From contig NC_058382.1 of NCBI RefSeq assembly GCF_018350175.1, positions 50,656,001 through 50,720,000 of the forward strand: DNA of 64,000 nt, written 5' to 3'. The translations under genes and the position numbers were made by a program. The DNA is from Felis catus (Eukaryota). The notes beneath the pieces were generated by a model, which saw only the letters and a list, made by a program, of their open reading frames with translations, did no database searches and had not been told where the DNA came from. Shown here one piece after another: positions 43,801 to 50,160 of this stretch (positions are counted from its first letter, which is position 1; every line of letters begins with the position of its first letter).

Positions 43801-44996
43801 TTAAAAGAAAAAGGGTACAGTTTGAGCATAATAGATTAGACCATGTGTTTGAAGTGGAAAAAAAAGTTGGAGGTCTTGTATTGCCATGACCTTCCACAAT
43901 TTGCAATTATGCAACTTACGTTTTCTAGTATAAAATTTGGGTGTGTTTTGAAATTGGAATATTTTTGTTTGGTTTGGAAATTATTTCACTTGAAATCCAC
44001 ATGGATTTCAACCGGGCCTCCGTGGAGGCAGAGAGAGAGAGAGAAGGAGGGAGGGAGAGAGAAAGCTCTTATTGGGCAGGATGCTTCCTGTTGCTTGGAT
44101 GTTTGGCTCTGGGGAGAAGCTGGAATCCAACAGCCCTGCTGTGGCTCACCCAGGAGTCAGCAGGGCCCCATTTGTGAGTGACTCTGGCGGGCAGGATGAT
44201 GGAGGGTGATTGCTTTCATTTACTTGATTAAAATTGGGAGAAAGGCAGACAGTCCTCCTGTCATTTCTTACGCAGCTTGCTGACTATTGTTCTTCTTTTT
44301 AAATGGACATTTACTCCCCATTTAGAACAATAAAATACCTCAACGCAAACATTAAGCAACACGTAGCTTATCTATCACACGCCCAACTTCTCTTGATAGT
44401 AATAACCCTGAATACAGCGTCCATTACAAGGCAAATTCTACATTTTTACAAGTTGCTTTATAGATTCATTTTGTGATCACTAATAAACCTATTTAGAAAG
44501 TATCCAATTAAGAAAAGCTTAATGAAAGCCAATTACTCAATGCCCTAAATTTTGTACATTTTATTTTTGAGGTACTGAAATGTGGTTTAAATGGGTCACA
44601 TTATATACGTTAGTGCTAAAAATGTAGCCCTCGTTCAATGCCAATTTACCCACAATAACACTTATGGGCAATTAACATGTCATTTTGCGTGCTATATTCA
44701 TCAGTAATTTTCTTTTACTTATTATAATGTTTGAAGAGTGTAACTACATTTATAATAAACGCATTTTATTAGTAATCAAGCTGGACTTTTCACTCATCCA
44801 CAGACCTGGCAGTTTACATGGGAGGATGTGTCCATTCATATACCAGCAGAACTTTCAGAAGCATAAACTCAAATGCATTTTCTAGGAGGGAAATTAATGT
44901 CCCCATTGTGTGCTAGGTTTAATCTGCAAATGGCACAAGAAAGGACAGCGCCACATGAAAATACTATGTCTCTTTTAAAAAATGTTTTTATTTAAA

Positions 44997-45060
44997 GGGG
45001 CGCATGGGTGGCTCATTGGTTCAGCGTCTGACTTCAGCTCAGGTCATGATCTCATGGTTC
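44997..45060 (+). mobile_element. 5' part of a Can-SINE split by the provirus (3' part at 48941-49110)
   Basis: SINE head stops at ...CTCATGGTTC; the SINE body resumes at 48941 GTTCATGAGTT...GAGCCTGGAGCC. Confidence 0.92.
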
Positions 45061-45496
45061 TGATATGCCCCAATTCGAGAGATACCCCGAAAACAAACCA
45101 CCAGAGTCCAGAGTCAAAGCCAAGGGGCAAGGGTCGTTTATTGCAGGTTCGAACCCCGTCCTCCGCGCACTCGTTGCTGGTGACGCTAAGAGGCCCTGAG
45201 CGAGGATCTTACAGCTTCTTTTATAGACAGGTACAAACAAGTTAGGGATTTTTTGTGGTTACAGAGCTGTTATTGGTTGACATTTAAATTTGAACACTCA
45301 GCAGAACTTGATTGGTTCCTGCCTTTTTTTCAAACCACTCAGCAGAACTTGATTGGTTCCCACCTTTAGGTCAGACCACAACCAGGCACGCCCTGGCTGG
45401 TTCCAGGAACAGCGCGGGGGGGGGGGGGGGGGGGGGGGGGCGGGTCTTTTCTTTGCAGTTGTAAGTACACCTGGTAATTTTTCTCTTAGTCTCTTA
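45061..45496 (-). promoter_or_regulatory. 3' LTR (436 bp) with minus-strand TATAAAA, AATAAA and CCAAT boxes
   Basis: Direct repeat of 48564-48940; adjacent PPT AAAGAGAGGGGGGAA at 45497-45511. Confidence 0.95.
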
Positions 45497-45537
45497 TTCC
45501 CCCCTCTCTTTGGTGCCTTAAGAGCCAATCTTGGATC

Positions 45538-45925
45538 TTATGTGTCTGACTCAAATGTTTCGGTAATGACGGGTTGATATTGGGTCCTAAGGCCCATCAG
45601 TTGGATTGTGTTAACTCGGTCTTTGATAAAGGCAACTAGTTTATTAATAATATAAGGCCCAAAGGTGAGGAGGAGAAGGAGGAGTATAAGGGGCCCAGCT
45701 AGAACAGAAAGCAGGGTAGCTAGCCACGGGGACTGATTGAACCAAGACTCAAACCAGCCTTGTTGTTGTTCTCGTTCACGCCTCCGTTTGGCCAGGCCTT
45801 CTCTAACTTTAGCCATGGACTCTCGGACTACTCCGGTCTGGTCAGCATAAAAACAACATTCTTCTCTTAAGGCTGCACATAAACCTCCCTGTTGGAGGAA
45901 GACAGGATCTAGGCCCCTTCGGTTC
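45538..45925 (-). pseudogene. env: env TM C-terminal part ([20 protein letters not shown]6[11 protein letters not shown], membrane anchor, cytoplasmic tail), out of frame with SU
   Basis: Gammaretroviral TM motifs; separated from SU by a 2-nt deletion near 45983 and a larger heptad-repeat deletion near 45925. Confidence 0.92.
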
Positions 45926-45947
45926 CTCATCAATGGCTGCCCTTAGG

Positions 45948-47270
45948 CTATTGAACCCCCGCTGCTGGATGACTAGTGATGAGACCTGTTCCTGCCCCTA
46001 TGGTACCGAGGCCAAATAAGGTGGCCAAGGTTATGGCCATAAAGGGTTCCCGTTTTGTTCTTATTGACTCTCTTGCTTCCGTCCCTTCTGTCCACAGATC
46101 ATACACAACATTTTCTTGGTGGTAAATAACCTTTGGAAATACTAATACCATGATACAATATTCGGGTGACGAATTAAAAACATCTCTGCTAACACATGGG
46201 GTGAGCCCTGTCTTAGAACAAATCCACCAACTGTCAGGAGCTGGAATTATCCATTTAGATTCATCTATAGAGTAATTAGTCGGGGCACAGAGCTGGATAT
46301 GGCTAGAGGGGACCTTTCCTATACAAGTCCCATTGCCAGTGACCGCTTGCAGTGTGAGGCCGGGGCCCTTTCGATTCCACTTGCAAGCTGCTGGCGACTC
46401 TTCTCCTGATTGTGAAAAAGGGGCAGCTAGACCTATGGCTTCGTGGAAGGGGGGTTTTATATCATAACATAGCCAGCAGGCCCTTGTTGCCTCAGGGTCC
46501 GACCGGTTTAAGGCCTCATACGCTGCTGTTAGCAATTTCCATAGGGAGTCTATGCCTTCTGGGTTCTGATTTTCTTGGACAGCTTGTGCTTTTACTCCTG
46601 GGGTAAGGAGGTGGGTCCTGCTGGAGGGAGTAGTGGGGATCTGCCTGGGGATAGGCTCGTCTCTTTTTTTATTTTTATTTTTTCCTAATATCTGATTTGG
46701 CCCCACCGGTTGTACAAGAGGGGAGACTTTTAATTTTATTTGAATGGCAGTCCCAAAGAGGGGACGTTGATATAAGTAGAGTCCCCAAGTGAGTCCTAAG
46801 ACCCATCGCCTGTCTTTTTTCCCTTCCTCTGTAAATCTTACACGAATAAGGTTACAGTTTTCATCATACCTGGTGCGGGTACATGGTCGGTCATAGGACA
46901 TTTCAATAAATTGGGGTTTTACTTCCCACTTCCATTCCCCATCATTGGAGGTGATGCAACTCCAGGCTGCACAATAGAGGGTTTCAAACCCTCCACATGT
47001 GCGCCTCATCGCCCCCGTCCTAAATCCCGGACATGCATAAAATCCATTTCTACTTATTGATACCCTCCTTTGCAGTTGCCTCCATTTACCTCCTTCCATT
47101 TCTTCTAATGGACTAACTTTTTCTAAATTAAAGTATAAATCTGGCCACCAGGTATTTAATGGGGCAGTTCCTAGGGTTTTGTTGTAGATTTCATGAGTCT
47201 CTAAGTTAGTAATTTCCCATGTCAAATTATAGGGGGTGTGGGGGTTTGGATTTACAGACAGCTTTCTTGC
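45948..47270 (-). pseudogene. env: env SU reading frame, open but lacking its start codon and signal peptide; RTKR furin site (46050-46061), fusion peptide, premature TAG
   Basis: NPHTPYNLTWEI (PHQ-like motif), APLNTWWPDLY, GFYACPG, WSCITSNDGEWKW, VGPN, CWLC. Confidence 0.92.
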
Positions 47271-47271
47271 T

Positions 47272-48137
47272 TGAACAGGATGCGGAGGAGCTGCTGGCAG
47301 TCGTCCCAGGTGGGCTGGTGGGTGAACATGACACTGTCTAAAAGAGCTATTAGGTCTTTAGGGTTATCAGAGAATCGAGCATTCTGTGTTTTCCAGTTGT
47401 AAAGGTCACTGGTGGAAAAGGGCCAATACTGGAGTCGGAGGTTGCCTGTTTCATCGGGGGGTCCTATTTCCCACAGGGGTAGGGCCACAGTGGAGTCGGG
47501 GAGGCGAGGGTTTGGCTCACGCTGGGTGCGCCCGTGGGTTCGGCCGGCTGGCCCCTTGCGGTTGGTTTTGTTTTCAATGGGGCCCGGCGCGGCTGCTGCC
47601 TCCCGTCCTCCTGGTTCCGGCGCAGCTGCCGCTTCCCCTCCTCCCGGTTCCCCTAGGGGGGCAACTAGCAGGGCGACTGGTGGGGCGGCTGCTGCGGGCA
47701 GTGCCTGGGGTACGAGGGGAGGGGGATGATAGGGTGGAGGGTCTAGGGATAATAGGTCCTGACTATCGGGCAATATGGGATACAAGGGTGTGGCTGGCGT
47801 CCTTGATGTTGGGGGATCTGCAGGCCGCATGGCAAGGACCTTACATGTTCCCAAGGATAGGAAGGGGGCCAACCAAGGGGGTGGATTTTCCACTAAATTC
47901 CACCATACAAGAATGTAGGGAATCGGTAGAAAAATCTTTGATTTCACCTTAGCAATTATAGGGAGGCAGAAAGTTCCTTCGGTTGGCCATCCAGCGCCGA
48001 AGGTTGGCCATTCGGAGCAGCAGAGGGTTATTAATTTTCCCCGCCGGATGTCTAAACTCAAATTCTGTCCTCTGGTTCTAACATCCCTGAAGTTAGCAAC
48101 AAGGAGAGAAAAGAGGAGTGCTTTGAGATTGGCCCAT
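47272..48137 (-). pseudogene. gag: gag (MA, p12 with PPPY, N-terminal CA), frameshifted near codon 9 and truncated in CA
   Basis: ATG GGC CAA (MGQ myristoylation start) at 48137; extra T near 48110; CSEWPTF, PPPY, YWPFSTSDLYNWK, THQPTWDDCQQLL. Confidence 0.95.
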
Positions 48138-48485
48138 CTGTGTCCTGGTAGTGGAGGAAAGGATTAAAAGGAGAAACAGTAAAGTTATGAGGATTTCTGG
48201 CTGGGCCAGGCCAGGTCACCTGTGAAAGGGAAGGAGTTTAACACTTAAAGGTTATAGAATAGAGAACACAACACTTAGATCGCTAGCGCGTTTCAGGTGT
48301 CTGCCACCCAAACAGAAAAATTCTGAAGGGCCCAAAAAGGTGCCCCAGACGGGTGCCAGTGGACATTTCCTACAGGACCGGACCGACTGCCCTATAGCGC
48401 GTCTGCCAGGGCTGTGTCAGTCACCGATACAGACCCCACGCGGGAGAGCCAGAAACGAACAGACAAACAGAAACAGAGCCGGCTC

Positions 48486-48491
48486 ACTTAC
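48486..48491 (-). promoter_or_regulatory. Probable retroviral major splice donor CG|GTAAGT
   Basis: Consensus donor about 50 nt downstream of the PBS. Confidence 0.75.
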
Positions 48492-48543
48492 CGATCGGTC
48501 TCAGGGACGACCCATTGATTTGGGGTCTGGTGGGTTTGGGTGG

Positions 48544-48561
48544 ATCCCGGACGAGCCCCCA
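48544..48561 (-). promoter_or_regulatory. Primer-binding site for tRNA-Pro (TGGGGGCTCGTCCGGGAT)
   Basis: 18/18 match to the MLV/FeLV-type PBS-Pro, 2 nt after the 5' LTR. Confidence 0.97.
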
Positions 48562-48563
48562 AA

Positions 48564-48940
48564 TGATATGCCCCGATTCGAGAGACCCCCCGAAAACAAA
48601 CCACCAGAGTCCAGAGTCAAAGCCAAGCGGCAAGGGTTGTTTATTGCAGGTTCGAACCCCGTCCTCCATGCACTCGTTGCTGGTGACGCTAAGAAGCCCT
48701 GAGCGAGGATCTTACAGCTTCTTTTATAGACAGGCACAAACAAGTTAGGGATTTTTTGTGGTTACAGAGCTGTTATTGGTTGACATTTAAATTTGAACAC
48801 TCAGCAGAACTTGATTGGTTCCCACCTTTAGGTCAGACCACAACCGGGCACACCCTGACTGGTTGTGGTAATGGCGGGGGGGGGGGGGTCTTTTCTTTGC
48901 AGTTGTGAGTACACCTGGTAATTTTTCTCTTAGTCTCTCA
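48564..48940 (-). promoter_or_regulatory. 5' LTR (377 bp)
   Basis: TG...CA termini; TATA box near 48725; followed by the PBS. Confidence 0.95.
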
Positions 48941-49109
48941 GTTCATGAGTTTGTGAGTTGGAGCTCCGTGTCGGGCTGTGCGGACAGCTCAGAGCCTGGA
49001 GCCTGTTTCAGATTCTGTGTCTCCCCCTCTCTCTGCCCTTCCCCCACTGGCACTCACTCGCTTTCTCTCTTTCTCTCTCTCAAGAATAAACATTAAAAAA
49101 TTGTAAAAA

Positions 49110-50160
49110 AAATTTTTATTTGAAATAATTTTAGGCTTACAGAAAAGTTGCAAAATTGGTACAGGATCCACATTTACCCTTCACTCAGATTCCCTAATGT
49201 TAACAACCATTGGGAGAACCAGGAAATTATGGTTGGATACTAACCCACAGATTTTATAGAAATTTCTCCAGTATGCCCCCTAATATACTATTTTTGTTCC
49301 AGGACGCGGCCCAGGATCCCTGATTGCATATAGCAACTGAGGTCTTTAATGACCTTCCATCTATGATAGTTCCTTAGTCTACCCTTGTCTTTCAGGACCT
49401 TGACTCGTTTGATTTTTTTTTAAATAACTGATCATTCTGTAGACTGTCACTCAATCTTGGCTTGCCACATATTTTCTCATTATTAAATCGAGCTTATGCA
49501 TTTTTTGGCCAGAATACCACAGAAGAGATGTTATGTCTTCAGTTCATAACAGCCTGGGGTACATGATGTCAATATGTCTTGTTACTTGCAATATGGGCCT
49601 CAAATTCTTGGTTAACATGGTGTCTGTCATGACTGGGTTTCTCCTTGATGAGGTTACTTTTAGCCTAGGTTGATGTCCTGTTTCTCCTTAAATTTTCACC
49701 CACTGATTTTAGCATCCCTTAGGGGATCCTGCCCACTACCGTTATTACTGAGGTATATTCCTTATGATGATCATACATTTCCCTCATTGCTTCCACATTT
49801 ATTAATTTGAATTTTTCTTTAAAGAAGAACTATCTTTCAGGGCCACCTGGGTGGCTCAGTCAGTTGAGGGTCGGAACATCGACTCAGGTCATGATCTCCC
49901 AGTTCGTGAGTTCAAACCCCACATCGGGATCACTGCTGTCAGCCCAGAGCCTGCATGGAATCCTCTGTCCTCCTCTCTCTGCCCGTCCCCAACTTGTGCG
50001 CTCTCTCTCTCTCTCTCTCTCTCTCAAAAATTAACATTTAAAGAAGAACCACCTTTCTCTACCTTTTAACTATTTAATGAATGTGAGTATGGACACATGC
50101 GTATTTGTTTCACTGGATGAGTTCTAATCCAGTACCCTATTTACGTTGTTACTCAGATTG
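49110..50160 (-). mobile_element. Old L1M (L1MC-like) 3' fragment, interrupted by a Can-SINE (about 49840-50040, +)
   Basis: TTTATTTGAAATAATTTTAGGCTTACAGAAAAGTTGCAAAA resembles an L1MC 3' end; SINE TSD TTTAAAGAAGAAC. Confidence 0.7.

Follow-up and report, generated by a model that had tools for sequence, protein, structure and literature searches.

The provirus on the minus strand of the window (the whole stretch of 64,000 nt of cat DNA analysed here) has lost pro-pol while signals for replication in cis are still recognizable, which raises the question of whether it is the product of a single deletion or a member of a deletion-derivative family spread in trans by a helper virus. The element spans 48940-45061 (3,880 nt) and has the structure of a gammaretroviral (class I) ERV, with two LTRs, a short target duplication, a primer-binding site (PBS) and a polypurine tract (PPT). 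The proteins are also of gamma type, i.e., Gag (MA and p30) and Env (TLV_coat, with a gp70-like receptor-binding domain); the Pfam matches are to Gag_MA, to the first 49 of the 201 positions of Gag_p30 and to TLV_coat, the last as two pieces. Relative to 8 long sister copies, approximately 4.3-4.4 kb of internal sequence is missing. The target duplication, the LTR pair, the Pfam matches and the size of the missing segment all bear out the description of the locus in a first-pass annotation as a pol-less gammaretroviral provirus with two LTRs, and the PBS, the splice-donor motif, both palindromes that it named, the GACG and the PPT are present where it had placed them (Table 1). The PBS is presumably of the tRNA-Pro type, and the 41-nt U3 repeat of the 5' LTR occurs twice in the 3' LTR. 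The insertion split a SINE-like repeat. Elsewhere in the window, at 465-863 on the minus strand, lies an ORF that presumably resembles a LINE-1 ORF2 endonuclease fragment.

Table 1. Features of the provirus and its insertion site, in window positions.
Feature	Position	Strand	Remark
Target-site duplication, upstream copy	48941..48944	-	4 nt
5' LTR	48564..48940	-	377 nt; single copy of 41-nt U3 repeat
Primer-binding site (PBS)	48544..48561	-	
Short leader	48138..48543	-	without X-region; 427 nt between LTR end and gag start
Leader splice-donor motif	48492	-	
Leader palindromes	48490-48499, 48476-48485, 48281-48288	-	
Leader GACG	48403	-	
gag remnant: MA, p12, N-terminal CA	47272..48137	-	ATG at 48137
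gag island	47259..47271	-	10-13 nt, between the 31-nt and ~4.34-kb deletions
env SU and TM start	45948..47261	-	open frame lacking both start codon and signal peptide
TM remnant	45538..45947	-	different frame; 74-nt deletion at 45925
Polypurine tract (PPT)	45497..45511	-	
3' LTR	45061..45496	-	436 nt; mutated terminal dinucleotide at U3 start
Target-site duplication, downstream copy	45057..45060	-	4 nt

The boundary between gag and env is not the direct join of CA to SU-proximal sequence at 47272 that was originally proposed. It consists of two jumps, one of 31 nt at 47272 and a second of about 4.34 kb at 47261-47259, which flank a retained island of gag. The shorter deletion shows a 1-nt microhomology in all 14 copies scored, and the longer one a 3-nt microhomology in all 10 copies scored. 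The 10-nt filler at the junction is itself gag, with an exact match in 15 of 20 fetched loci, which rules out host or untemplated sequence as its source. Two further lesions that were absent from the first description, a 24-nt deletion in MA at 47924 and the deletion in TM listed in Table 1, are equally private. The MA deletion is missing from all 15 further copies in which it was measured, that of TM from all 16, and no intermediate copy shows one or more of the four deletions.

A subfamily spread in trans should lack its own pol, keep all its cis signals intact and show its junction at two or more independent loci. Own pol is indeed absent here, but the cis signals are not all intact, as described below, and the junction occurs once. 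We searched the window's own genome (G000, 2.43 Gb, a single assembly in which match counts are lower bounds): a 66-nt junction query in a DNA search and a 35-nt junction pattern allowing up to 3 mismatches each returned only the locus itself, and for a 141-nt junction query the window locus alone spans both sides among the 40 of 110 candidates that were scored. A search for the junction at other loci had been named beforehand as the refuting test, and the junction is unique within this genome, so that the proposed deletion-derivative family receives no support. The test is able to detect spread, since it found a pol junction shared by two copies on different contigs, L046 and L050. The window copy lies outside both groups of copies that share a deletion (the L046/L050 pol junction and an env deletion at six loci), it has no supported sister clade in any of four trees, and its terminal branch is of ordinary length (0.009-0.026). 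The single-copy junction and the unshared private deletions support the other option that the first-pass annotation had offered, a one-off event, and we consider it very probable that this is an isolated defective provirus from an old gammaretroviral family of felids, a dead end that was deleted once and did not spread further in this genome.

The family was delimited with a U5-PBS pattern that gave 82 matches, 18 of them of the window family type; all 17 of these besides the window fall within 20 fetched regions. Adding L047, L048 and one unfetched locus gives approximately 21 proviral loci, to which come 97 LTR-motif matches; the 5' part of L048, the locus at C1:88.73 Mb and the 3' part of L050 were seen incompletely. 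Sister copies of the deleted form could be unfixed, lost or present as solo LTRs among the 97 LTR-motif matches. The alignment from PBS to PPT contains 16 copies, with L037 left out as a duplicate and L047-L050 because they lack one end or are divergent. Specifically, L036 and L037 (G000:C47:51.98 and 52.07 Mb) form an inverted segmental duplication whose two copies are 99.97% identical across 9.9 kb, flanks included, and they are therefore counted as one insertion. Six loci (L036, L037, L038, L044, L045 and L048), and probably also G000:C1:88.73 Mb, have in common an 87-nt deletion in the proline-rich region of SU (window 46648-46563), and these six form a moderately supported group in each of the two SU trees (81/84 and 87/90). 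We rejected this deletion as proof of defective spread, since it is in frame. In L043:6970-8530 (G000:C27:7.72 Mb) the env region of a family copy does not align to the window SU, which suggests an env swap. Neither the family nor the locus is described in the literature we found, and the tables and supplements of Kawasaki 2017 and the Song FcERV catalogue may already name either. FcERV-gamma6 is also a felid gammaretroviral ERV with defective copies, but by its description it has lost env and has 832 copies in cat (PMC4643047), whereas the window family mostly keeps env and is far from that number, and on this description we set the two apart.

The cis signals deserve a closer look, since they were the original argument for mobility. 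The LTRs, PBS, leader and PPT are present, as claimed; the 3' LTR has a mutated terminal dinucleotide at the start of U3, so that the claim of full retention holds only in part. Taken alone, the leader motifs do not exceed what chance would give. Of 2,000 shuffles, 31% contain one or more 10-nt palindromes, the leader fold has z = -0.19, so that by folding the packaging signal does not exceed chance, and an Rfam search of 44500-49500 gave no matches at E up to 1. The motifs are nonetheless well conserved among sister copies, and the diverged relative L049 also has two of the three, as fits viral signals passed on by descent; we regard them as inherited features of the family.

The mutated end of U3 is seen in only 2 of the 19 copies having a PPT match. 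Reverse transcription copies the 3' U3 into both LTRs of the progeny. In lentiviral vectors, which belong to another genus, attachment-site mutations are described as reducing integration by up to 3-4 logs (PMC5423482). With the mutated 3' U3 end copied into both progeny LTRs, onward integration, and with it any spread today, would be hindered.

We can also compare the locus with sequences that are known to enter FeLV. XR-FeLV is reported to carry the X-region of FcERV-gamma4, which means that FeLV acquires ERV leader sequence (PMC10878261; bioRxiv 10.1101/2025.07.21.665799). The X-region and the site of the XR-FeLV detection primer would have to lie in the leader of such a donor. The primer does not match the window; it matches one of 50 loci (L049) and has 14 exact sites in the genome. 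By eye, the X-region of L049 matches the published gamma4-X2 one, and it has no counterpart in the window provirus. L049 aligns to the window family over LTR, gag, pol and env, but is only ~75% identical in gag-pol, 70% in env and 82-87% over ~150 nt of the LTR, has another PBS and a leader ~700 nt longer; the sister copy L033 is 73-75% identical to it in gag-pol. This divergence, the other PBS, the longer leader and the absence of the X-region here argue that the window family, compared through L049 as a proxy for the gamma4 reference sequences, would be a sister of FcERV-gamma4 rather than the X-region donor. The suggestion of the first-pass annotation that the provirus could donate leader, gag or SU sequence to FeLV leans on FcERV-gamma4, the known donor and the sister family. 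In G000, L049 and 13 further exact primer sites mark X-region-bearing FcERV-gamma4-like loci, i.e., the known XR-FeLV donor family.

These comparisons also bear on the possibility that the locus represents a non-autonomous family, in the style of ETn/MusD, recKoRV or the bovine D-type elements, that spread in trans, can be packaged by FeLV and serves as a donor to it. The presence of PBS, leader and PPT is what such a family would show, and defective XR-FeLV genomes with the FcERV-gamma4 leader exist and are thought to be replicated by a helper (PMC10878261). ETn/MusD, IAP I-delta-1, recKoRV/KoRV and the cattle ERVK[2-1-LTR] D-type, as described in the sources cited, have likewise lost coding sequence while keeping LTRs, PBS, leader and PPT; however, these pairs are defined by many copies of one structure, which in cattle makes up 85% of elements, whereas the window junction is single-copy (PMC10924933; PMC6112702). 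With a unique junction, no X-region, a mutated U3 attachment site and no young copies of the deleted form, we consider such a family very unlikely.

The reading frames show that neither Gag nor Pol nor a secretable Env is encoded by the window copy. The gag frame stops 14 codons after its ATG. The SU frame runs through 469 codons from stop to stop, but its first Met is codon 87 (position 47099), inside SU, and ~34 N-terminal residues are missing compared with a primate Env homologue (P0007), confirming the earlier statement that the env start and signal peptide had been removed. From the usual gammaretroviral layout, the env splice-acceptor region would also fall within the deleted part. A locus co-opted to make a truncated, antiviral SU protein, similar to FeLIX and Refrex-1, which we take to be analogues of this kind, would draw on the long open frame. 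However, a secreted truncated Env needs a start codon and signal peptide before SU, and both are lacking here, as are the N-terminal residues and probably the splice acceptor; by a rough estimate an open frame of this length is also not unusual after 1-2% divergence. Such a function is extremely improbable. The junction-type peptide occurs in none of 166 homologous proteins. The primate protein, a presumably HERV-T-like, MLV-related proviral Env from gorilla, is 50% identical to the Env of the provirus across 429 aligned residues and comes from another host lineage. The closest Gag homologues, at 77-87% identity, are those of cat, lynx, jaguar and leopard cat, in line with a felid host; Gag relatives from Old World monkeys reach 56-64%. 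Four annotated felid proteins (P0053, P0057, P0082 and P0107) have Gag p30 fused to the integrase C-terminal domain, the type of product expected from a CA-to-integrase deletion like that of L040.

To place the deletions in time we used the LTR pair, which differs at 17 of 373 sites, or at 7 of 322 when CpG sites and a poly-C tract are removed. At the felid substitution rate of 1.8e-9 per year given in PMC4643047, the latter corresponds to an age of ~6 My (2.4-12.4). The LTR divergence over 270 nt, 0.054, lies in the upper part of the family range of 0.015-0.062, and the window copy is thus at the older end of the family and not part of a late wave. APOBEC-type hypermutation was rejected, as G-to-A changes make up only 6 of 34 private substitutions, with no excess. 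Template switching is known to yield deletions and deletions with insertions (PMC3187697), and we somewhat favour template jumps by reverse transcriptase in the last round before germline entry over post-integration repair, because of the two successive jumps, their 1-3-nt microhomologies and a break in L047 at a near-identical env site. Identical traces can result from post-integration repair, and indels did arise after integration, as seen in the LTR pair. In L047 (G000:C16:84.21 Mb) ~55 nt of U3 are joined to env at most ~2 nt from the window env breakpoint, and the 4-nt target duplication of this copy is intact; the common breakpoint is possibly a landing site of choice for template jumps. 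The target duplication and the LTR pair show that the window copy integrated normally, at the age given by the LTRs; it lost ~4.34 kb in a microhomology-guided deletion and has no daughter copies in this genome. Endogenous FeLV is reported in the genus Felis only (PMC10536682), which makes the element's own parent virus, and not FeLV, the more likely helper at that time.

The number of deletions fits less easily with a single event. The window copy has 3 small deletions in 3.1 kb, compared with 10 in 84.9 kb for 13 siblings (L043 and L046 were excluded because of misalignment), an excess for which the Poisson probability is 0.006, or 0.05 when the 31-nt deletion is merged with the large jump, uncorrected for 16 copies. 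A defective genome passaged for several rounds could account for it. The copy might then be the sole germline survivor of a helper-dependent lineage that went through several cycles with the parent virus, gathered four deletions and integrated once, an account that is also consistent with the largely retained cis signals and with the occurrence in the family of at least one pol-defective junction common to two loci. However, none of the copies is an intermediate with some of the four deletions, the terminal branch is of usual length, and the excess becomes marginal once the adjacent jumps are merged, and we find this account unlikely. A broader version, in which the copy is the lone germline trace of a multi-cycle helper-dependent genome, the FcERV-gamma4 sister family also made a recKoRV-like lineage represented by L046 and L050, and co-packaging by present-day feline gammaretroviruses is possible if the locus is transcribed, seems to us unlikely. 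Sampled-word shares were 0.51-0.54 in 14 genome-scale or unlabelled runs (11 studies) and 0.07-0.38 in 6 RNA runs (3 studies), but paralogues share these words and the locus is not separable from them, so that the shares are no evidence of fixation or expression.

The preferred reading, a single dead-end copy, is of little importance as such: single-copy proviruses with internal deletions are commonplace, and among the 16 aligned copies of this family 7 have a private internal deletion of more than 500 nt. What is useful is the clean negative result, at this locus, on the spread of a deletion family, and the separation of the family from the true XR-FeLV donor. A more promising lead is offered by the pol-replacement junction that L046 and L050 have in common. 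In these copies (L046:5750-5915, G000:C18:91.92 Mb; L050:5349-5503, G000:C1:83.456 Mb) a GC-rich piece of ~152 nt stands in place of ~1.55 kb of pol; it comes, inverted and rearranged, from the gag region of a different gammaretroviral ERV that is present at 8 other places. The two would be better candidates than the window copy for a trans-complemented, recKoRV-like lineage, where gene conversion is also possible. If the junctions prove common to other felids, they would provide a cat example of non-autonomous ERV spread.
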